A stretch of DNA of 64,000 nucleotides. Origin: a virus. Of this stretch, positions 5,146-61,135 are shown piece by piece. The notes under the pieces are model-generated. The model searched no databases and had not been told where the DNA came from. It saw nothing but the letters and a program-made list of their open reading frames with translations. Every line of letters starts with the position of its first letter. Within the stretch, counting starts at the first letter, position 1. Location of the stretch: the IMG/VR virus record IMGVR_UViG_3300000115_000005; one strand, 5' to 3'. A program made the position numbers and the translations under genes.

Positions 5146-5645
5146 GAGTCCCTAAGTGAAGTAATTGGTTTTTTAACTGGCCACCAAATGTTGTGAGCTT
5201 CTTCATCATTCCAACGAATTGTAAATTGATTATTATAATTATGATAAGAGTCTAATTTATAACTAAACACAGCATGGTCAGACATAACAACATGACCATT
5301 ACCAAATTTAGGTGGTATTAGAACCTGTTTTTTATTTGCATCTGATAATGTGAAAGATGCCCATTGTTTATACTGAGGTGACTCTGGATCATTATTTAAA
5401 ACAACAAGGTAAATAGAACCATATAAACATGAAACAAGTTTAGTTGTACAATCATCACCGTGTATACCACGCAAAACGTGTTTTCTTGATGAACTTATAC
5501 TATCAACAACCCAATCTCTTACTACTATGGTTTCTTCATACACCTTTTTATTAAAAGACTCTATATTGTGTCCTCTAAAATCTTCAAATATAGCTGGTGG
5601 TGTAAGTACAAAAACATTATTTAATTCTGTGAAATCAACTTGCAT
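5142..5645 (-). CDS. rmlC: dTDP-4-dehydrorhamnose 3,5-epimerase family protein
   Basis: FEDFRG, VLRGIH, IPPKFGNGH, IRWND. Confidence 0.85.
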   Translation of the reverse strand: MQVDFTELNNVFVLTPPAIFEDFRGHNIESFNKKVYEETIVVRDWVVDSISSSRKHVLRGIHGDDCTTKLVSCLYGSIYLVVLNNDPESPQYKQWASFTLSDANKKQVLIPPKFGNGHVVMSDHAVFSYKLDSYHNYNNQFTIRWNDEEAHNIWWPVKKPITSLRDS

Positions 5646-5654
5646 AATATATTA

Positions 5655-6449
5655 TCACTTTATAATTGATATTTGTGGTCCAATGTGAGCTATTGTATCA
5701 ACTTCTTTTGTCCAAGGATATTTACCATTATATCTTTTTTTGTTTTGAGAGTTACCTTTATCAAAGAAATCTTTACCAACCGAATTGGGATTAGACTCAC
5801 CTTTACCTGTATTATTATCTAAGCGATAGCATAAGGTATGTTTATTCGTACAGGTATAATTTGGATATTGTAACTTCAAGTTGTGGAAAAATTGTCTATC
5901 AGCACCCCATTGCCCGTACCAAGAGTGTCCAATGCTAGTAGCAATATCACGCTTAACAATAAAAGATGAGGTGTCAATGTGATATACTTGATCATCAAAA
6001 TATACAGGCCATTTACCAAGGGATTCGCAATTATCTTCACATACAAACTTTTCATTCTGATCATAAATTTTTCGTAATGAGTACGCCCAATCTGCTCCAT
6101 CTTTTATTTTCTCCACTAATCGTTTTACATGATCTGGTTCAAACCAGTTATCTTCATCAAGATAACATATTAAATCAGCATTTACAAGAAAAGAACAGGC
6201 AGAATACGCTCTATGCCCATACCAACCTTTTCCAACATTATCTTGTAGTGATATTGTTTTAACTGGTATTTTAATTTCTTTTTTTAATCTTTCTCTATTT
6301 CCTATAGCCCATTCACAGGCGGATTTATGTTCTTCACCATCTATAAAAACATAATGAACTATGTCAAGATACTCTTGATTTTGTATTGATTCTAAACACG
6401 TTGTCAAACAATCTTGACCTATCGTTGGTGTAACTACGGCTACTTTCAT
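5655..6449 (-). CDS. Glycosyltransferase family 2
   Basis: VAVVTPT...SIQNQ, YLDEDNW DxD motif, GADR. Confidence 0.85.
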   Translation of the reverse strand: MKVAVVTPTIGQDCLTTCLESIQNQEYLDIVHYVFIDGEEHKSACEWAIGNRERLKKEIKIPVKTISLQDNVGKGWYGHRAYSACSFLVNADLICYLDEDNWFEPDHVKRLVEKIKDGADWAYSLRKIYDQNEKFVCEDNCESLGKWPVYFDDQVYHIDTSSFIVKRDIATSIGHSWYGQWGADRQFFHNLKLQYPNYTCTNKHTLCYRLDNNTGKGESNPNSVGKDFFDKGNSQNKKRYNGKYPWTKEVDTIAHIGPQISIIK

Positions 6450-6763
6450 AAATATTTTTTTCCTTTATCATCAATATAAATGATTTCATCACTTGGATAC
6501 CAACCTCTAACTTTGATTAGCAAATCCGTGACTGAATCATCATCATCATTAAAAAAATTAACCCCATTTACACTATCTATTTCTCTTACCACCTGAGCTC
6601 TATCATCCCACGGTATATGTGAGTGCTTTGAGTTTCTTTTCAACCAATTATCAGAATATATACCAACTATCAAATATTTACCATGTTTAGCAGATTCATC
6701 AAAAAAAGTAATATCAGCTGATGTGAGTGGATTAAATGCACCTGCAACAACAACTATCTTCAT
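6446..6763 (-). CDS. Cytidylyltransferase-like protein (HIGH motif degenerate)
   Basis: GAFNPL...LIVGIYSD...R..VV. Confidence 0.65.
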   Translation of the reverse strand: MKIVVVAGAFNPLTSADITFFDESAKHGKYLIVGIYSDNWLKRNSKHSHIPWDDRAQVVREIDSVNGVNFFNDDDDSVTDLLIKVRGWYPSDEIIYIDDKGKKYL

Positions 6764-7194
6764 ATAAGAATTTCCGGAAAGGCCTCTTGTACAAGTTTTT
6801 TGGTGAGATGTTTTACTTTTAAATCTTTATCAAATAAATGCACAAGGATTCTAGCTTCATCAGCGTGTAAAGATTCAAGAACAACTACTAAAAGTCTCCT
6901 TTGTTTCTCTTCAGTAAGTCCTGGAGCTCTTGATGGGTGGTTCTTTATAAATCTATAAAGTTTTGGTACCTCTAGATTTAAATAACTAAAATTTAAACCA
7001 GCTGGTTCTACTGCCGGTCTATAAGTTGATGGAAAGGACTCTTTATCGAATTCAATGTTAGGATTAAAAGCATATTCTAAAAAGTTAATAAATATTCTAT
7101 CACCAAATTTTCTAAGTAATCCTATTCTTTCTTTTTTAGTTTCACATTTATCAAAATCTTCAAATATCTCGGAATATAATTTTTCAGAACTCAT
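6760..7194 (-). CDS. Conserved T4-like hypothetical protein
   Basis: KLYRF...LESLHADEA...LVQEAFP pattern, typically found next to rnh. Confidence 0.65.
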   Translation of the reverse strand: MSSEKLYSEIFEDFDKCETKKERIGLLRKFGDRIFINFLEYAFNPNIEFDKESFPSTYRPAVEPAGLNFSYLNLEVPKLYRFIKNHPSRAPGLTEEKQRRLLVVVLESLHADEARILVHLFDKDLKVKHLTKKLVQEAFPEILI

Positions 7195-8066: not shown

Positions 8067-8756
8067 TTATACCTTAACATTGGTTTTCTTAATTGTCAAG
8101 CTTTTTATCTTTGAACAATCTTCTATTACCGAATTATAATAGTCGACCATTTTTTTTAACTTTGATTTAGGCAAACCATATGCCTCTGTTAGTATTTCAT
8201 CTTTACCTAATAAAGCTTCTTCCCATTCTTCTTTTTCATTTTCAGCCCATTTCTTAATAAATCTAGTGTGCATGGATTTCATACCAAATTTTTTAAGAAT
8301 CTCTAAAGCAGATGGTTTTACTTGAAAATCAGAGTCCATTACTTCATCTACTTGGCCTTCTAACTCACCAATGCAATCATCAGCTTTCATTCTTAGTCGA
8401 TCTTGAATTGTTATTTTAGGCTTCTCTGGTTCTAGAATGGGATTGTCTTTTATTTTCTGTAAAAGTTCGTTTACATTACTATCATAATACTTCTGCCAAG
8501 AATCTGGTAGTTCTTTTTTATCTTCAAGCATACAACAAATATAGCCAAATCTTGGTGGCATAGTTTTTGCCTGTTCCGAGGCATTAACCTTATATTTTTT
8601 TTTCATATGTCCTTTGATACGATTAAAGGCAAATTTAGACGATTTTTCGGTGCTGTACCAACTCAAAAGTTGGTCCGCTTTTTTATCATCTAATTTACTT
8701 TGGCTTCTAGGTTTAACGATAGATCGTTTAATTTTTTTCATTTTTAGTGTACTCAT
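8067..8756 (-). CDS. Hypothetical protein
   Basis: Long ORF collinear with its neighbours. Confidence 0.6.
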   Translation of the reverse strand: MSTLKMKKIKRSIVKPRSQSKLDDKKADQLLSWYSTEKSSKFAFNRIKGHMKKKYKVNASEQAKTMPPRFGYICCMLEDKKELPDSWQKYYDSNVNELLQKIKDNPILEPEKPKITIQDRLRMKADDCIGELEGQVDEVMDSDFQVKPSALEILKKFGMKSMHTRFIKKWAENEKEEWEEALLGKDEILTEAYGLPKSKLKKMVDYYNSVIEDCSKIKSLTIKKTNVKV

Positions 8757-8781
8757 ATCAGGTATATAGAAAAAATATTAA

Positions 8782-8789
8782 CATAAATA
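8782..8789 (+). promoter_or_regulatory. Late promoter variant CATAAATA for the plus-strand island
   Basis: One mismatch to T4 TATAAATA, in the divergent intergenic gap. Confidence 0.5.
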
Positions 8790-8862
8790 ACAGCGTTGGT
8801 TGGGCAGAAGTGTTTGTCATGGGTTCATAATATATGACCTAAATTATTTTTGAGAGGCAAAC

Positions 8863-12606: not shown

Positions 12607-12923
12607 TTAAGAAACTTTTTCTTCTTCTCATAGTCTTAAGCTTTAGTGTAGGTGCGGTACCACCACCAAGAGGTGTTGATCCTGTTGAAGCAAAAAAACG
12701 TGAAAGAATTAATAAGATACAAAGAGAGAAAGATCGTAGAGATGATATGTGGTGTTATATCAAACAGAAAAAGAAATTATCTGATGGTGGGTTTCAATGT
12801 ATATACACTTGTCCAGCTAGATGGAAAAATGGTAAAAGGCCTGAACCACATATAGAAAGTAATAATGTGGGACCAGGTTTTGGTTGCCCTAGTTCAATGA
12901 ATGTTTTAAGGAGAGGTAGATGA
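12606..12923 (+). CDS. Secreted Cys-motif protein with apparent ATT start (105 aa, not in ORF track)
   Basis: (M)KKLFLLLIVLSFSVGA signal peptide, WC...CIYTC...GCP; GGAGG at 12592-12596; fills the gap exactly with overlaps at both ends. Confidence 0.65.
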   Translation: MKKLFLLLIVLSFSVGAVPPPRGVDPVEAKKRERINKIQREKDRRDDMWCYIKQKKKLSDGGFQCIYTCPARWKNGKRPEPHIESNNVGPGFGCPSSMNVLRRGR

Positions 12924-13291
12924 TTAGGATAATAAATGCAATTGTAATACCAATTTGGTTTATACTTTTTATTTGGATCTTTACATCAACACAAGTATTA
13001 GCAAGTAATAGCGTTCAAGATACTAGCATTGGAGACAAAGTAGCTGGTGAAAAAAGATACAATGTAAATTGTAAGAATTGTCATGGACCTGCCGGTAAAG
13101 GTGCAGCCAGTTATCCTAAAATATCAGGTAAAGAAATGTCTTATATAAAAGATAGATTAGAAACATATAGAAGTGGTAAAGAAATAGGACCTAATTCAGC
13201 TTTAATGATAATGATGGCAAAATCATTGACTGATGAAGAAATAAATAATTTAGCTGCGTATCTTAAAGATGCAAAATATATGGTGAAATAA
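12920..13291 (+). CDS. Monoheme class I c-type cytochrome (c553/c4-like)
   Basis: CKNCHG heme motif, YPKISG, axial Met region ALMIMMA, LTDEEINNLAAY; N-terminal signal/TM. Confidence 0.92.
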   Translation: MIRIINAIVIPIWFILFIWIFTSTQVLASNSVQDTSIGDKVAGEKRYNVNCKNCHGPAGKGAASYPKISGKEMSYIKDRLETYRSGKEIGPNSALMIMMAKSLTDEEINNLAAYLKDAKYMVK

Positions 13292-13635
13292 TGAAACAAT
13301 TATTAGTAATGTTTACAATGTGGTTTGTATTATGTAGTGGTTTAATTTTTATTGCTAATGAAGCAACAGCGGCTTCATGTGGAAGTCCTTTTAGTGGTAA
13401 TCCACAAGCACCAAGATGGGATTTAATTAAAGCAGAAATTGACAAAGCAAATAAACATGAATATTATAGACCAGTACAAGTAAGAGAAAATATATTAGTT
13501 CATGTTTTATATGATGAAGAAAGAGAATATATTGTAATAAGTAAAACTGCTTCAATGTTAGTTCCTGAAGCTAGAGAACAATTCAAAATAGCTGTAAGAG
13601 AATGGATAAAAAAAGGAATCGAATATGGAAGTTAA
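13291..13635 (+). CDS. Secreted hypothetical protein
   Basis: Signal-peptide-like N-terminus; coupled ORF. Confidence 0.55.
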
Positions 13636-14029
13636 TCAAGAAACATTACAATTGATGGATCCTTTAGCAAAAATGCCAGAACAAGAAATGCCGGTTCCAT
13701 TTGTACTTGCTGAGAGTGCAGCTAAAAAAGTAAAAGAATTAATTAGGGAAAGTGGTGAAGAAGCTTCTCGAATGATGTTAAGAGTATTTGTACAAGGAGG
13801 AGGATGTTCTGGATTTCAATATGGCTTTTCTTTTGCTGAAGAGATAGAAGAAGATGATACTAAAGTAGAAAAGTTTGGTGTCACTATGTTAGTAGATAGT
13901 ATGAGTTATGGTTACTTGGTTGGTTCAGAAATCTATTATAAAGATGATCTTAATGGGTCACAATTTGTAATAAGAAATCCAAACGCCAAAGCAACTTGTG
14001 GGTGTGGTTCTAGTTTCGCTGCCGGTTAA
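13625..14029 (+). CDS. erpA: A-type Fe-S carrier ErpA/IscA
   Basis: [17 protein letters not shown] and [14 protein letters not shown]. Confidence 0.93.
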
Positions 14030-14249
14030 CAACTTTTAGAACATCTCTGTATTGGGTGAAGTGTAATTCATTCTCAACAAAATCTAAGAACTCACCAACA
14101 GTCCAATGGCTTATTGACTCACATTGTTTTTTATAATGCACAAATACAGTTAAGTTTTCTATATCTGAGATTGTTCTACTTATAGTAATCTTATCGTCAC
14201 CGTTTAAATTATTTTTAAGTATTGTAATATTTCTATCTCTAATGTTCAT
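14010..14249 (-). CDS. Hypothetical protein
   Basis: ORF coupled to the upstream gene. Confidence 0.45.
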
Positions 14250-15208
14250 TAAAATCCATTCGGTACTATTATGTAATGTATTGAAAGAACTATGCCTACT
14301 GAAGCACCTAATCCAATCATCATCTTAAAAAAATCTTTAGTGATAATAGGAAAGACTACTTTAAATTTACCATTACCTGTAACTGTAGCCATTGCAAGTT
14401 CACGACCACAAAGTAACCCAACAAATACCCATGTTGTTGACATTGGTATATCGTTTAGCTCTTTGAAAAACCATAATATAATAAAGTAAACACCATCAAT
14501 GATTGTTGCACTTCTTACATATCTAGTATTATGTTTTGATAATACTATTTGTTGAATTTTACCCCCACCTTCACGAAACATAAAACCTAAACCCATTACA
14601 AATAATAATGATATAGCAACCATTAAGTCCCATGGAATCACTCTAGGAAGGAATACAGCTATGTTTGCCATATCATGACCAAGCCATGTAAACCATAAAC
14701 AACCTGTGGTAAACCATTGGCCTATTCGCCAGTACCTTTTATGTTCTTCCTTGACATGATCAAACTCATTAAGTATTTTTGAAACTATAATCCAAATAAG
14801 ATAGGCTGCTACAGCTGCAACTGCATATCCCATCATAGACTTCATCAACATTTTTTCTAATACAAATGACGAGGCAAAAGCTGACAATACGAGAAAACTT
14901 GTACTAACTGGAATACCTACTCTGGTTAGTATTAATAGGATACCTGGTGCCATTGCATGATACCATTGAATCTCTTGAAAAGGTATTTTGTTTAATCGGC
15001 CATAACTTATATCACCACCATTAGTATACCAACCAAACCATAATGTATAAAGTAATACTGCACTTGCAAATCCCCAAAGAATTTTCCAATTAAATCTTTC
15101 TTTATTAGAAGCAATCCATGTTCCAAGTGTTTGAACAGAATCATTTGCAATTACAGCGTAACCAGCAAAAATAAAACCTACTGCCATCCAGAGAGTCATA
15201 ACGTCCAT
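14249..15208 (-). CDS. Polytopic membrane protein, PiT/PHO4 phosphate-permease-like
   Basis: About 9-10 TM segments; internally duplicated motifs IANDSVQTLG...PVSTS and HDMANIAV...PMSTT resemble the PiT signatures. Confidence 0.6.
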   Translation of the reverse strand: MDVMTLWMAVGFIFAGYAVIANDSVQTLGTWIASNKERFNWKILWGFASAVLLYTLWFGWYTNGGDISYGRLNKIPFQEIQWYHAMAPGILLILTRVGIPVSTSFLVLSAFASSFVLEKMLMKSMMGYAVAAVAAYLIWIIVSKILNEFDHVKEEHKRYWRIGQWFTTGCLWFTWLGHDMANIAVFLPRVIPWDLMVAISLLFVMGLGFMFREGGGKIQQIVLSKHNTRYVRSATIIDGVYFIILWFFKELNDIPMSTTWVFVGLLCGRELAMATVTGNGKFKVVFPIITKDFFKMMIGLGASVGIVLSIHYIIVPNGF

Positions 15209-15222
15209 ATTGTTTCTATCCC

Positions 15223-15246
15223 AAAAAAAACCCCGCCTAAGCGGGG
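15223..15246 (-). terminator. Rho-independent terminator of pqqA
   Basis: CCCCGC-TTAG-GCGGGG followed by T8. Confidence 0.9.
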
Positions 15247-15264
15247 TATCGTTAGCTAATAATA

Positions 15265-15342
15265 CTACTTAGATGCAACGTACATTGTGATTTCAAATCC
15301 AAATCTTAAATCAGTCGCTGCTGGCTTAGTCCATTTATTCAT
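15265..15342 (-). CDS. pqqA: PQQ precursor peptide PqqA (25 aa, not in ORF track)
   Basis: [25 protein letters not shown]: W-x-K-P leader, R-F-G-F and E-x-x-x-Y core; AGGAGG RBS upstream; terminator downstream. Confidence 0.96.
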
Positions 15343-15442
15343 AATGCCTCCTATATTAAATGGGTTATATAATAATTTAGTAAATGTTAGTGATATATGA
15401 TATAAAGAAAATCATGAGTTTCATATGATCTTAGTATAAACA

Positions 15443-19957: not shown

Positions 19958-20034
19958 TGGTCGGAGTGAAATGATTTGAACATTTGATCTCCTGCTCCCA
20001 AAGCAGGCGCCTTACCAGACTAGGCCACACTCCG
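19958..20034 (-). tRNA. tRNA-Pro(TGG)
   Basis: CGGAGTG...CCTGC-TTTGGGA-GCAGG...TTCAAAT...CACTCCG-A-CCA; complete cloverleaf with encoded CCA. Confidence 0.93.
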
Positions 20035-34511: not shown

Positions 34512-35708
34512 TTAAGCCTTATACTCGGCAGCTTCCTCTGAACCGCTTGTTGCTGAACCTTCAGTATAAGAATGTTTACCTGTTCCTGCTAATGCACCAT
34601 CTTTAACAATAGTGTATTCAGTTCTTTGCTCTTCACCATCAAATAATTTTTCAAGTATTTCTCTCGTACCAGCTGCGTATCTAGCTTGAGCTGTGAGTGA
34701 GGTACCTGATGTATGAGGTGTCATACCATGATGAGGCATACTTCTCCAAGAATGGTCATTTGGTGCAGGTTGTGGGAACCAAACATCACCGGCATAACCA
34801 GCTAATTGACCTGATTCAAGTGCATCAACAATTGCTTGTCTATCACAAATCTTACCACGAGCCGTGTTTACTATGTATGCACCTTTTTTCATTTTTGAAA
34901 TTAATTCTGCATTAAATAGATTTTCGGTTTCAGGGTGTAGTGGGCAATTAATTGTTACAACATCTACCGTGGAAACTAAAGATTCGACATTATCATGATA
35001 AACTAAATTTAACTCTTCTTCTACTTCATCTGATAATTTATGCTTATCAAAATAATGCAATTCAACATCAAAAGCTTTTAGTTTTCTAAGTGCATCTAAT
35101 CCAATACGACCAGCTGCAACTGTACCAACTTTCATACCCTCTAAATCATAAGACCTTGAAACTGCATCAGCAATGTTCCAACCACCTTCATTTACAATCT
35201 TATGTTGAGTATGATAATCTCTAACCAATGCAAGAACCATCATTACAATATGTTCTGCAACTGACCTTGAATTACAGTATGTTACTTCCATCACGTCCAC
35301 GCCATTGTCCATGGCGGCCTGCAAGTCAACGTGATCTGAACCTATACCTGCTGTAATCGCCATTTTTAAGTTTGGTGCTGATTCCATTTTTTCTCTTGTG
35401 AGATAATATGGCCAGAATGGTTGAGATATAACAACATCTGCATCAACTAATTCTTTGTCTGCTGTACAACCTTCTCCATCTTTATCTGAGGTAACGACCA
35501 ACTCATGGCCATTTGATTCTAAAAATTCTCTAAGACCCAATTCACCTGATACACAACCAAGTAATTCACCGGGATTAAAATCAATAGCTTTTGGTGATGG
35601 TAATGTTTGACCATCAGGATATTTTTCAATTACTGGTAGATTTTCTATTGCATAATCTTTTGGCATACCACCAGTTGGATCGTCATATAAAATACATAAA
35701 ACTTTCAT
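34512..35708 (-). CDS. fdh: NAD-dependent formate dehydrogenase (metal-independent)
   Basis: KVLCILYDDP, LLGCVSGELGL, ISQPFWPYY, AGIGSDHVD, AAGRIG, NTARG, GDVWFPQPAP, PHTSG; Asp in YFDKH indicates NAD preference. Confidence 0.96.
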   Translation of the reverse strand: MKVLCILYDDPTGGMPKDYAIENLPVIEKYPDGQTLPSPKAIDFNPGELLGCVSGELGLREFLESNGHELVVTSDKDGEGCTADKELVDADVVISQPFWPYYLTREKMESAPNLKMAITAGIGSDHVDLQAAMDNGVDVMEVTYCNSRSVAEHIVMMVLALVRDYHTQHKIVNEGGWNIADAVSRSYDLEGMKVGTVAAGRIGLDALRKLKAFDVELHYFDKHKLSDEVEEELNLVYHDNVESLVSTVDVVTINCPLHPETENLFNAELISKMKKGAYIVNTARGKICDRQAIVDALESGQLAGYAGDVWFPQPAPNDHSWRSMPHHGMTPHTSGTSLTAQARYAAGTREILEKLFDGEEQRTEYTIVKDGALAGTGKHSYTEGSATSGSEEAAEYKA

Positions 35709-35940: not shown

Positions 35941-36735
35941 TTAGCCTCTTGTTGTATTTGCAAGGTCTTCCATCATCTCTTTTTGTTTTAGATCAAGACT
36001 TGCAAGTTTCTTTTCATATTCACCGATAGGGTGATCATATACACCTCTAAAAAATTGAAGTTTTTTAAAAGCGGTAAATCTACCTCTTAAACCATCTTTA
36101 ATTCTTTGCCATGGGCTTAAACCATCACGAATATTTCCATAATAGTTTAAATATTCCAATGTACCATGGTGCTTGAAAAACAAGAAAGATGGGGGTACTT
36201 TTGTAACAGCATCATTGTTGTTTACCCAACGGTGATGATCGAAGCTAAGACTATTTACAAATCTTTTATTACCAACTCTAGGTGAACCAAAAGTGTATAG
36301 TGTTAATGATTTAAAAATGCCTTGTAATCTGGCGGCACAAATAGTGGCCATTGCGGCTCCTAAACTATGACCAGTTATAGTACAAACTTTACCTTTATGC
36401 TCATCAACATAAGTTTCAATTTGATCCCATAATTTTTCAAGTTCACCATAAAATCCATCATGAACTCTACCAGCAACCTGACTCTTTTGTTTCCATGCCT
36501 TTAAGTCAGCAACAACATCACTTGCTACATCAGGTTCAGTACCTCTGAATACAAATGTTATCTCATTATCACTTGTGCAAACATAAGCTTGAGCACCATC
36601 GTGGTCAAGAAAGTCAACTGTTTTATAGTTCATTTCTTTCATAATTTGACTTTGTATATTAGTAGTCAAATCTTCATAAACGAGGCTAGATAATTCACAA
36701 TATTTTAAATCGTTATATCTCAAATCGGTTTTCAT
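35941..36735 (-). CDS. Lipase class 3 (alpha/beta hydrolase)
   Basis: FRGTE, VHDGF, TGHSLGAA, TFGSPRVGN, D.V..VP, DH..EY. Confidence 0.9.
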   Translation of the reverse strand: MKTDLRYNDLKYCELSSLVYEDLTTNIQSQIMKEMNYKTVDFLDHDGAQAYVCTSDNEITFVFRGTEPDVASDVVADLKAWKQKSQVAGRVHDGFYGELEKLWDQIETYVDEHKGKVCTITGHSLGAAMATICAARLQGIFKSLTLYTFGSPRVGNKRFVNSLSFDHHRWVNNNDAVTKVPPSFLFFKHHGTLEYLNYYGNIRDGLSPWQRIKDGLRGRFTAFKKLQFFRGVYDHPIGEYEKKLASLDLKQKEMMEDLANTTRG

Positions 36736-36742
36736 AATACTC

Positions 36743-37153
36743 CTAATTTAGTTTTTCAATTCTAACTTTTACATCATTAGTTTTATCTTTATAGTTCTGA
36801 ACAGCAGCTTTGATGGCATCTTCAGCTAAAATTGAGCAATGTATTTTTACTGGTGGTAAACATAGTTCTTTTGCAATCTCAACATTCTTAATTGATTCTG
36901 CATCATCAATCGTTCTACCTTTTACCCATTCAGTCATTAAACTACTGCTTGCTATGGCTGAACCACAGCCATATGTTTTAAATTTTGCATCTGTAATGAT
37001 ACCATCATCATTTACTTTTATTTGTAATTTCATTACATCACCACAGGCCGGTGCACCGACCATACCCGTACCAACATCTGAGTCATTCTTATTCATTGAT
37101 CCTACATTTCTAGGATTTTCATAATGATCTATAACTTTTTCGCTATATGCCAT
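36743..37153 (-). CDS. iscU: Fe-S cluster scaffold IscU
   Basis: MAYSEKVIDHYENPRNVG, APACGDVM, FKTYGCGSAIASSS, LPPVKIHC. Confidence 0.96.
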   Translation of the reverse strand: MAYSEKVIDHYENPRNVGSMNKNDSDVGTGMVGAPACGDVMKLQIKVNDDGIITDAKFKTYGCGSAIASSSLMTEWVKGRTIDDAESIKNVEIAKELCLPPVKIHCSILAEDAIKAAVQNYKDKTNDVKVRIEKLN

Positions 37154-54152: not shown

Positions 54153-54835
54153 TTAGCACAATCATCACGAATTAAACTATGCCAGGTTCCATTAAAATCA
54201 CCTGGAGGGAATGGATTATTCATATCCACATATGTCAAAAATTTACCATGTAACCCATACTCATGTAAATGGGCTTTCATCATATCTTCACCGATCATTG
54301 AAACCTTTTGATCGTAATAGTGGTTCATATTATTGTAAATAGTCATTCTCTTATTCATAATATTAGATGAGCTAAATGCAAATTGATCGTTACCAAAATC
54401 TTTTTCTGGAACCATTCTACAATTTGGTATATAAAGTACCCATGGATTCATTTTATAGAATGGTATAACAATATTTAAAGCATAATCAGGCCTCGATTTA
54501 ATCACCCAATCATAATTCTTTTTTAATTCCATTTCTTTTTTAATTTTTAATTCACAGGACCTCTGCATACTATAAAGCATTGACACCGTAAAACGAGGTG
54601 GGTGGTTTATAGCATCTGGAGTATTTTTATATCTTTCATCATAATCACCTTTAAGTTCATTTTCTAGAAGAGATGAAACTGGTTTATATAATTTTATATA
54701 CTCTTCAGCTTCATCAGAATTCCATGAATGTATAAATGTATCAACATCATAGTGATCTAGTAAATTCTTCTTGTGATATTCATAACCTTTTTCAAAACTT
54801 CTAGGTTGACCGGATAAACATAGGGCTATTTTCAT
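54137..54835 (-). CDS. Putative glycosyltransferase
   Basis: KIALCLSGQPR, YDWVIKSRPD, NDQFA. Confidence 0.65.
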   Translation of the reverse strand: MKIALCLSGQPRSFEKGYEYHKKNLLDHYDVDTFIHSWNSDEAEEYIKLYKPVSSLLENELKGDYDERYKNTPDAINHPPRFTVSMLYSMQRSCELKIKKEMELKKNYDWVIKSRPDYALNIVIPFYKMNPWVLYIPNCRMVPEKDFGNDQFAFSSSNIMNKRMTIYNNMNHYYDQKVSMIGEDMMKAHLHEYGLHGKFLTYVDMNNPFPPGDFNGTWHSLIRDDCAKWKKR

Positions 54836-55407
54836 TTTGAATACTTTAAATTAATTTTAGAGTGGTGTTGTTCATCAGCTCTAACTTTTTTAATTAAATC
54901 AGAAAGTTTAGCATCTTCTTGCATTTGATAATACTCAATTGCTCTTTTAGGTGCAGGCACGTTTTCAATTTGTCCATTCTCAACCATATAGAGGTATTCT
55001 GTGTAAGACTTAACTGCTTCACGTTCAAAATAAAAAATCATTTTGTGTGCGGTTTTAGGAAAAAATACATAAAGAAAAAAATAAAAGACCCAAAAAGTTG
55101 CCTGTGAAAAAATAACTAACCATCTTTCAAAGAAATTAGGTCTAGCTATTTCTATAAAAAACATTAAATGTTGTCTTTCATTTTCGGCTTCTGCAATTAA
55201 TTCTCTAATCATAGGTCCATGGCCAGTTTCCATTTTTCTTAAACTTCTCAAATGAATCCACATTCCTGCAACAATACCAGGAACTCCAGCTACAGTTTCT
55301 AGAACTACAGCTCTATGACCATATCTCTTAGCAAAAAAAGTGTCTGCCAAAAATCTAAAAAACTTTGTCATTGATTTAGCAAACCAATCTGATATTTTTC
55401 TTTTCAT
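54832..55407 (-). CDS. aox: Alternative oxidase (di-iron ubiquinol oxidase)
   Basis: LETVAGVPG, EAENERQHL, FEREAVKSY, RADEQHH; start reassigned to 55407. Confidence 0.92.
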   Translation of the reverse strand: MKRKISDWFAKSMTKFFRFLADTFFAKRYGHRAVVLETVAGVPGIVAGMWIHLRSLRKMETGHGPMIRELIAEAENERQHLMFFIEIARPNFFERWLVIFSQATFWVFYFFLYVFFPKTAHKMIFYFEREAVKSYTEYLYMVENGQIENVPAPKRAIEYYQMQEDAKLSDLIKKVRADEQHHSKINLKYSK

Positions 55408-56276
55408 GTAGAATACTTCATTTGTATGATGTGTCGCCAAGCAGGAACTCTATCGTATTGGTGTACAATACAAAAGTCTTTACTACCATCAGATGTTTTA
55501 ACAGATCCACTTTCCATAATAGGGCTTGATTCTAACAAGTGTGACTTAAATTCTTGTATCTTAGCTGGATCTGCCGTTGTACCTAATTGACAAGCCCAGC
55601 CATCTTCTGACTTAAAATATTTTGATTTTTGTTTGTAGGGGGATTGTGAAACCATAAAGTTAAATGTAGATTGGTCACATATTGGTATAGGTTTACCCAT
55701 GCAAGATGAAAATATATTAATCATTAGAGATTTCATAGCATAACCTGTGCCAGCTAAAACACCTACATTATAGATTTCATTTTCTTTGAAAATTTCATGT
55801 ACATATGGTCCATAAGTTTCAAGAAGATTTTGATTACCCCATGGTTCATTTTTATATAAAATACTTTCAGAGGAGAAAAAATAGTCATAATGATCATTAT
55901 TATTAAAGTAAAAACAATGTTTCTCTTTATACTCTTCTATCCATTTAACTGGATCTTTTTGGAATATAACGTCTTTAACATCTGTTGTAATAACCCAATC
56001 ATACTCTGGTGATTTTTTTAAATAATCATATATGTGTATAAATCTTTCAACATGAGGTGGCATTTTTGAATCATGAACTAAATTACCCTCATCATCTTTA
56101 TTGAAACCTATGATTTTAAAACCAGCTTGTTCAACTTTGATAACTGTTTCTTTATCACAATTTAATAATATTAAAACTTTATCACCTTCAAATCCACTTT
56201 GATTAATTGAATTACACCAATATTGTAGTGTATTCCAATCATAATTACTAGCACATCCTATAATCAAGTTACGCAT
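55404..56276 (-). CDS. GT-A fold glycosyltransferase-like protein
   Basis: TDVKDVIFQKDP, NVGV..G, DQ..FN, IVHQYDR. Confidence 0.7.
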   Translation of the reverse strand: MRNLIIGCASNYDWNTLQYWCNSINQSGFEGDKVLILLNCDKETVIKVEQAGFKIIGFNKDDEGNLVHDSKMPPHVERFIHIYDYLKKSPEYDWVITTDVKDVIFQKDPVKWIEEYKEKHCFYFNNNDHYDYFFSSESILYKNEPWGNQNLLETYGPYVHEIFKENEIYNVGVLAGTGYAMKSLMINIFSSCMGKPIPICDQSTFNFMVSQSPYKQKSKYFKSEDGWACQLGTTADPAKIQEFKSHLLESSPIMESGSVKTSDGSKDFCIVHQYDRVPAWRHIIQMKYST

Positions 56277-60016: not shown

Positions 60017-61135
60017 TTATCGAATTATGTCAATCTCTTTATCACCTGTCCATACTTCTAAGTCTTTTCTGAGTCTTTTGTCGTTTTTAAGAGACATATA
60101 TCTGCTTGAGGCCTTCTTGACCCACCATTTAAATATATTCTCCAGATAGTGTTTATCGTGGTTATCCTTGTCTGGAATCAACTTATCTGTCTTACCAGTC
60201 ACTACATCAACAAAGTTTGAGAAACCATAATTACAAGCGTAATATCGTTTCTTTTCAGTTAAATTAAGAGCTTTATTGATTGTTTTATTATATCTTTCCA
60301 AATCCTCACCATCTAAATTAGCCTTGATAAGAGCCTGTATTTTTGTAGATATTTTAAGTTTTCTTGATGAGGCATCTTCTGGTACTATCGGTTCACCAAC
60401 AGCTTTTTCCATATAATCTCTTAAATCTTCATATGGTTTGCCGTGCATCAACGGTAAAAAATTAGAATCTGTAAGACCTTTAAATCGTAAAAATGGCTTC
60501 ATGCCATCATACTGTGAACTAGACTTTGATGAACCATACAAACTGGTCGTTTCAAATAAACAAGTATTCATACCTGGATATTTTGTATTCATTCTTTCAC
60601 GAACAAAGTGTGAACAACAAATACCAGCCAATAATTTACCACCAAGGTAATTAAAACCAAATGGTTGTGATGGCACAATTGCAAAACCCATAATTGATGT
60701 TTTATTAAATGATACTGCTGTTTTAGCATCTTGTGTAAAAACACAATCTAATAGTTGATTTCTTGGTTTCATATTAATTACAGGAGAACCAATACGAATA
60801 AAACCAAGCCACTTTTTACTATTCGTTTCTAATACACCTAATCGTAATGATTTTCCTGGAATACTTGTCATATTGGAATGAGATGAAATAATTTTAACAT
60901 AAATGTCCCACATATTTTGGTTCATTTCATGTATTTCTATATTCATATCTTCTGGGTGCATATCAAAGTTATCAAATAAATCTATTTCAGGTCCCATTCC
61001 TGGTAATCCAAAGGACATTTTTTCAACTGTACTTACTTTTTGATCACGAATATAATCTGCAATACCATCAAATTTATCAAAGTAATCTGAGAATACTTTG
61101 GCACCGTGTATAGCTTGTTCTTTAGTTATTTTCAT
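60017..61135 (-). CDS. DUF4338/DruA-like conserved phage protein
   Basis: GFNYLGGKLLA, ETTSLYG..SQYDG. Confidence 0.6.
   Translation of the reverse strand: MKITKEQAIHGAKVFSDYFDKFDGIADYIRDQKVSTVEKMSFGLPGMGPEIDLFDNFDMHPEDMNIEIHEMNQNMWDIYVKIISSHSNMTSIPGKSLRLGVLETNSKKWLGFIRIGSPVINMKPRNQLLDCVFTQDAKTAVSFNKTSIMGFAIVPSQPFGFNYLGGKLLAGICCSHFVRERMNTKYPGMNTCLFETTSLYGSSKSSSQYDGMKPFLRFKGLTDSNFLPLMHGKPYEDLRDYMEKAVGEPIVPEDASSRKLKISTKIQALIKANLDGEDLERYNKTINKALNLTEKKRYYACNYGFSNFVDVVTGKTDKLIPDKDNHDKHYLENIFKWWVKKASSRYMSLKNDKRLRKDLEVWTGDKEIDIIR

Follow-up and report, generated by a model that had tools for sequence, protein, structure and literature searches.

The window, by which the whole analysed stretch of 64,000 nucleotides (64 kb; IMG/VR record IMGVR_UViG_3300000115_000005) is meant, carries a 25-codon open reading frame, pqqA, at 15265..15342 (-), the translation of which matches exactly the peptide given by the first-pass annotation; it contains the cross-link pair Glu17-x3-Tyr21 and a W-T-K-P leader motif. 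A Shine-Dalgarno sequence, AGGAGG, is located at 15347..15352 (-), and the ATG follows 4 nt further on. On the other side, an intrinsic terminator is found at 15222..15247 (-) (7-bp stem with 6 G-C pairs, 4-nt loop, T8); the stem-loop ACCCCGC-TTAG-GCGGGGT occupies 15230-15247 (-), starting 17 bases past the pqqA stop, the T8 then runs to about 15222, and the folding prediction agrees. Terminator scanning of 1.7 kb gave 3 sites vs 0.5 expected from shuffles, the pqqA hairpin being the strongest. Both elements had been pointed out before: the AGGAGG ribosome-binding site was recovered ahead of the ATG, the GC-rich terminator, placed at 15223-15246, is real and its coordinates were correct to within a base or two, and "self-contained cassette" is a fair description of this Shine-Dalgarno sequence, 25-codon ORF and terminator.

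The upstream spacer (90 nt, 15353..15442 (-)) contains one weak sigma-70-like site (ATGAAA-16-TATCAT, 15424-15397) and the block AACTnATGATTTT. Promoter-like sites upstream of the window pqqA were no commoner than in shuffles, and no promoter was established. The block is common to the window and to two further contigs, L020 (spacer at 6830-6925) and L179 (spacer at 8695-8790); it lies some 70-85 nt ahead of the pqqA start codon and might act as a promoter or in regulation. The terminators of the three stand in the same place and have the same architecture (hairpin and T-run); their stem sequences differ.

PqqA is a ribosomal precursor. The radical-SAM enzyme PqqE, assisted by the chaperone PqqD, joins its Glu and Tyr by a cross-link; each PQQ costs one PqqA peptide, and the enzymes are catalytic. 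The window peptide scored about twice the curated cut-off for both PqqA models: Pfam PF08042, 41.9 bits (cut-off 21.1 bits; E 9e-11; model positions 1-19 of 19); NCBIfam TIGR02107, an equivalog model, 39.6 bits (cut-off 20 bits; model positions 1-21 of 21). The earlier assignment to PqqA, put forward for checking by HMM, was thereby upheld. When the window peptide was aligned with six phage copies and the bacterial copy in L007 (eight PqqAs in all), W4, T5, P7, R13, G15, F16, E17, T19, M20 and Y21 were invariant; E17-I-T-M-Y21 of the window peptide is the Glu-x-x-x-Tyr pair that becomes PQQ and is likewise invariant in its two cross-linked residues, and a leader W-x-x-P ... R-x-G, apparently of the kind bound by PqqD, is present. 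Judged by these scores and residues, the window ORF is a genuine PqqA, far beyond chance. The gene does not lie directly upstream of pqqBCDE, the position by which members of the family can be recognised; pqqA standing alone has been described for the family before (PMC4109929).

Among the genes of the window are those for both subunits (large and small) of ribonucleotide reductase (RNR), for a DnaB-type helicase and for a UvsX that bears the T4 C-terminal domain; PHROGs are matched by a glycine-rich protein and by a DUF6267 protein. UvsX has its best relatives among T4-like phages (the nearest, Phage C48C1, is only 62.6% identical), and megablast of 8 kb around pqqA matched no phage record. 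On these grounds the window belongs to a T4-like phage, not Melnitz-like, that has no near relative in culture; it is marine, relatives being present in Tara contigs. The pqqA gene lies inside this bona fide phage genome with phage genes flanking. PqqB, C, D and E as tblastn queries (E<1e-3) gave no match within the 64-kb window; as positive control, they recovered the operon next to pqqA at 44 of 48 bacterial loci; the XoxF of the candidate host lineage (see below) also gave no match within the 64-kb window. The absence of pqqBCDE from the window, as claimed earlier, is therefore borne out, and the accompanying statement that the phage carries only the consumed substrate is shown for these 64 kb of a probably larger genome.

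Beyond the terminator, 14 nt past the T-run, starts a multi-pass membrane protein of 319 aa (14249..15208 (-)), distantly similar to PiT/phosphate-sulfate permeases. Marine metagenomes contain over 7,800 relatives of it; it falls in no Pfam family and is named in the atlas "phosphate/sulfate permease family", in bacteria and viruses alike. Copies 83-85% identical are found on bacterial chromosomes among ordinary genes (hemB/hemE/prs; PEPCK), and the permease was not found in candidate host genomes G001-G003; it is a second host-type gene, possibly from a donor different from that of pqqA. A link between the permease and PQQ was considered and rejected, the gene being absent from the candidate hosts and the contexts of its bacterial homologues being free of pqq genes. 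Further on, a conserved island comprises cytochrome c (12920-13291 (+)), a 114-aa protein with no assigned function (13291-13635 (+)) and an ErpA-type Fe-S carrier (13625-14029 (+)). Cytochrome c is again a host-type gene, and others in the window are IscU (NifU_N; 36743-37153), alternative oxidase (54832-55440), a class-3 lipase (35941-36735) and a protein with a weak DruA-like (Druantia) domain (60017-61135). A D-2-hydroxyacid/formate-dehydrogenase-like protein of 398 aa (34512-35708 (-)) is encoded between the RNR subunits; homologues in the candidate host genomes are only 25-29% identical. The sole tRNA in the window is tRNA-Pro (TGG) (19958-20034 (-)).

The same arrangement was found in six Tara/ENA contigs (L179-L184): cytochrome c, the 114-aa ORF, ErpA, the 319-aa permease and, last, a pqqA that had not been called as a gene, with its own terminator, so that the permease adjoins pqqA in these close relatives too. 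On the 45-kb IMG/VR contig L020, pqqA and its terminator are located directly upstream of a formate-dehydrogenase-like gene (5474-6664), the orthologue of the window gene with 88% aa identity. A further T4-like relative, L075 (UvsX 70% and DnaB 71% identical), has pqqA 4.7 kb from uvsX, vs 47 kb in the window. The allele of L075 is the type carried by Methylophilaceae phages, whereas the window, L020 and L179 share the allele type of the marine bacteria described below. Since the site of pqqA differs between related backbones, the cassette moves; its allele differs between them as well.

A scan of the genome collection for the allele type of the window gave 48 loci, all from Burkholderiales-type bacteria. 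The nearest PqqAs were those of three low-GC (35-40%) marine MAGs, Betaproteobacteria bacterium TMED41, TMED82 and TMED100, identical at 20 of 22 positions to that of the window and at 22 of 22 to that of L020. The variant residues of the window peptide fall within the range of this lineage, with the exception of Ala8, which recurs in higher-GC Burkholderiales copies; one extra pqqA copy in the family ends ...IASK. The three genomes (1.5-1.9 Mb) have pqqABCDE, and a dehydrogenase of the PQQ methanol/ethanol family (TIGR03075) was above cut-off in two of them (687-695 bits), that of the third genome being cut off by a contig end. A close homologue of the phage gene is present, then, in a lineage that holds the rest of the pathway, as is looked for in an auxiliary gene. 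The first-pass annotation, in which comparison with Methylophilaceae PqqA was proposed, needs correction here: the window matches another low-GC marine betaproteobacterial lineage and not the type of Methylophilaceae phages. Only 10 of 59 genomes of the candidate host family have pqqA, and the family is for this reason probably not Methylophilaceae. The lineage carries 2-3 pqqA copies per genome. On TMED41 contig NHCU01000025 (L142), an orphan pqqA stands between a citrate-synthase/PrpD/acyl-CoA-synthetase cluster (methylcitrate cycle) and an MFS transporter; the setting is ordinary chromosomal, and bacteria of this lineage are therefore not strict methylotrophs of the OM43 kind. Judged mainly from one 22-residue peptide, the likely host belongs to the streamlined marine betaproteobacteria of low GC that have pqqABCDE together with a XoxF-type dehydrogenase; ErpA identity, 57-70% over the 121 Burkholderiales genomes compared, gave no discrimination between hosts. 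With the allele and its site both varying among related T4-like backbones, the pqqA allele might serve as a marker of the host lineage, replaced by phages on change of host; this is put forward tentatively, at a little under even odds.

Search of 50,697 phage records with the peptide (tblastn) returned 12 records. Two of these belong to one mislabelled bacterial assembly: "Acinetobacter phage MD-2021a" (L007, CAKLQF020000010.1) was rejected as a viral carrier, the contig being bacterial with ppk, pqqABCDE and a dipeptidase gene. The viral carriers are Venkman, P19250A, MEP301, MEP401, MEP402, four Melnitz genomes and Manatee Spring podovirus; a lone pqqA is accordingly present in every cultured methylophage among the records returned (Venkman, P19250A, MEP301, MEP401/402, Melnitz). 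The six inspected (Venkman, P19250A, one Melnitz genome, Manatee Spring podovirus, MEP402, MEP301) have an intact ORF of 23-24 codons with ATG and an SD-like motif, and span at least three groups that are classified differently in the record taxonomy (Venkman and P19250A siphovirus-type; MEP402 Zobellviridae; Melnitz Kyanoviridae). No PqqB, PqqC or PqqE family match was obtained in the complete genomes of Venkman, P19250A, Melnitz, MEP402 and MEP301. In the phage records inspected, pqqA either carries no annotation or has nothing over it but a "hypothetical protein" of the opposite strand; such a wrong-strand protein is the sole annotation over pqqA in Melnitz MZ577097 (L003:3964-4072) and in the Manatee Spring record MW202481 (L004:2067-2195). 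The Melnitz pqqA is followed by tRNA-Leu 11 nt downstream.

IMG/VR was scanned at the DNA level with the pattern W-T-x-P-x5-R-F-G-F-E-[VI]-T-M-Y, covering only the F-G-F-E-[VI]-T-M-Y type, and at least 120 contigs were found to carry it; in the metagenome contigs examined, pqqA was not called as an ORF. Because hosts have orphan pqqA copies too, the set may include some host fragments. Among the matches listed, pqqB-E were beside none of the 126 other viral copies (0/126), vs 44/48 for the bacterial loci. The 127 viral copies listed comprise 115 distinct nucleotide versions and only 51 peptides; pN/pS on the ten codons not fixed by the pattern was about 0.14, a rough value with synonymous sites near saturation and many copies related, which on this rough estimate suggests purifying selection on the viral peptide. 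ATG with an SD-like 4-mer upstream was present in 126 of 126 scorable viral copies among the matches listed; a hairpin with T-run within 70 nt downstream was present in 52 of 125 viral copies listed vs 12 of 624 random windows of the same loci, and the mean MFE downstream of viral pqqA was -14.3 kcal/mol vs -7.9 kcal/mol in random windows. The cassette form is general among viral pqqA copies. When the 127 viral loci were clustered by tblastx with single linkage, almost all of them merged and no usable number of independent lineages resulted, and the distinctness of the carrier phage groups was for that reason taken from the record taxonomy of the isolates.

The stand-alone pqqA of the window is best read as a host-derived auxiliary metabolic gene of a lytic T4-like marine phage that feeds the consumed substrate to the PqqB-E of the host (probability about 0.72). 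The peptide would be made by the phage during infection and fed to the host's own PqqB-E; as host transcription would be curtailed by the phage, only the consumed part, PqqA, would need resupply, and PQQ-dependent alcohol (methanol) oxidation, hence the energy supply, would be kept running. Expression of the gene, processing to PQQ and benefit to the phage are what we infer from the comparisons above. Since one PqqA is spent per PQQ and the enzymes turn over, PqqA resupply alone could sustain PQQ-dependent oxidation. The genomes of Methylophilaceae, with 3-12 pqqA copies per genome and one pqqBCDEFG (Beck et al. 2014, PMC4109929), suggest in the same sense that precursor supply is what cells scale. 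More speculatively, the neighbouring ErpA, together with IscU, could support Fe-S enzymes such as PqqE; Fe-S carriers have been reported in OM43 phages (PMC10580990).

The gene could instead be a neutral passenger, a tiny host gene acquired through illegitimate recombination, not yet lost and with no role in infection. Its very small size makes it cheap to carry, and its site varies among related phages (beside the permease in the window and L179, beside the formate-dehydrogenase-like gene in L020, near uvsX in L075); a passenger is nevertheless improbable, given that pqqA recurs in every cultured methylophage returned, across unrelated phage types, that selection appears to act on the peptide amid abundant synonymous change, and that the gene has retained its own Shine-Dalgarno sequence and terminator. 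To a similarly low degree it may be supposed that the phage is not limited to the substrate, pqqB-E and/or a PQQ dehydrogenase lying elsewhere in its genome and the cassette being part of a fuller phage PQQ module. Lake Baikal T4-like methylotroph phages do encode methanol dehydrogenase and radical-SAM proteins (PMC7678222), and the window represents 64 kb of a probably larger genome; the five complete methylophage genomes free of PqqB, C and E matches and the 126 other viral loci listed, none with pqqB-E nearby, argue against such a module. Very little can be said for a decoy that titrates host PqqD/PqqE or yields a non-PQQ product and so shuts down or redirects host metabolism: nothing direct favours it, competition for PqqD by a mimic of the leader peptide is conceivable in principle, and the peptide has kept both cross-link residues and, with 20/22 identity to the host-lineage copies, should be a normal substrate. 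Least probable of all is that an RNA element or recombination site (attP-like remnant, terminator, sRNA) and not the peptide was selected: Rfam over the cassette gave nothing above gathering scores, the weak matches, to terminator-bearing RNAs/sRNAs overlapping the hairpin, being all far below them, and some temperate phages do carry gene fragments at attP, yet the ORF has been kept in full, start codon and SD included, the great majority of changes are synonymous and the carriers include lytic T4-like phages.

If the allele does mark the host lineage, phage supply of a consumed cofactor precursor would not be confined to Methylophilaceae and would take in a second, uncultured lineage of streamlined marine PQQ-using betaproteobacteria; the 25-codon gene would then be usable for assigning hosts to uncultured phages. 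PQQ-dependent methanol/alcohol oxidation by streamlined planktonic bacteria ties algal production to CO2. Direct tests are feasible, as cultured phage-host pairs with pqqA exist (Venkman or Melnitz on OM43 strain H5P1); the medium published for such cultures includes 1 nM PQQ. The gene is below ORF-calling thresholds, missing or mis-stranded in the cultured-phage records examined and uncalled in the contigs examined, and surveys of auxiliary metabolic genes therefore undercount it systematically. Viral PqqA as a phage helper gene has been known since 2020; new here are the allele type and probable host lineage, together with the island of pqqA, PiT-like permease, ErpA and cytochrome c, and the added value of this window is modest.

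Viral PqqA was published for Lake Baikal T4-like methylotroph phages, population VP_266, and was proposed there to be an auxiliary gene boosting methanol oxidation (Coutinho et al. 2020, Microbiome 8:163, PMC7678222); the mention of viral pqqA in freshwater viruses that accompanied the first-pass annotation was correct. The Baikal phages resemble the window phage in being T4-like, of roughly 35% GC, with PqqA and a PQQ-dependent methylotroph host. They differ in being freshwater phages with assigned Methylophilaceae hosts and a co-occurring viral methanol dehydrogenase, whereas the window is marine, gave no XoxF match within its 64 kb and has a different PqqA allele type. P19250A is stated in that paper (PMC7678222) to be without these genes, and an intact, unannotated pqqA is present in P19250A. 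The cultured methylophages (Venkman, P19250A, MEP301, MEP401/402, Melnitz) share with the window an orphan pqqA with its own SD (23-24 codons there); their peptides are of the ...TEMRFGFEVTMYVMNK type, and the window allele is of another type. In the isolate papers on these phages, as far as searched, pqq is not mentioned.

Bacterial orphan pqqA copies resemble that of the window in standing alone, at a distance from the one pqqBCDE(FG) cluster, a pattern that speaks for precursor dosage; they are chromosomal and under host control, whereas the window copy is on a lytic phage genome. By analogy, the same logic would apply to cyanophage psbA: D1 protein, a rapidly consumed part of the host energy system, is resupplied by the cyanophage while the remaining machinery persists. 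The protein and pathway are unrelated, and the function of psbA was demonstrated experimentally, whereas that of phage pqqA we infer; a phage gene sustaining PQQ supply would be the cofactor counterpart of psbA.
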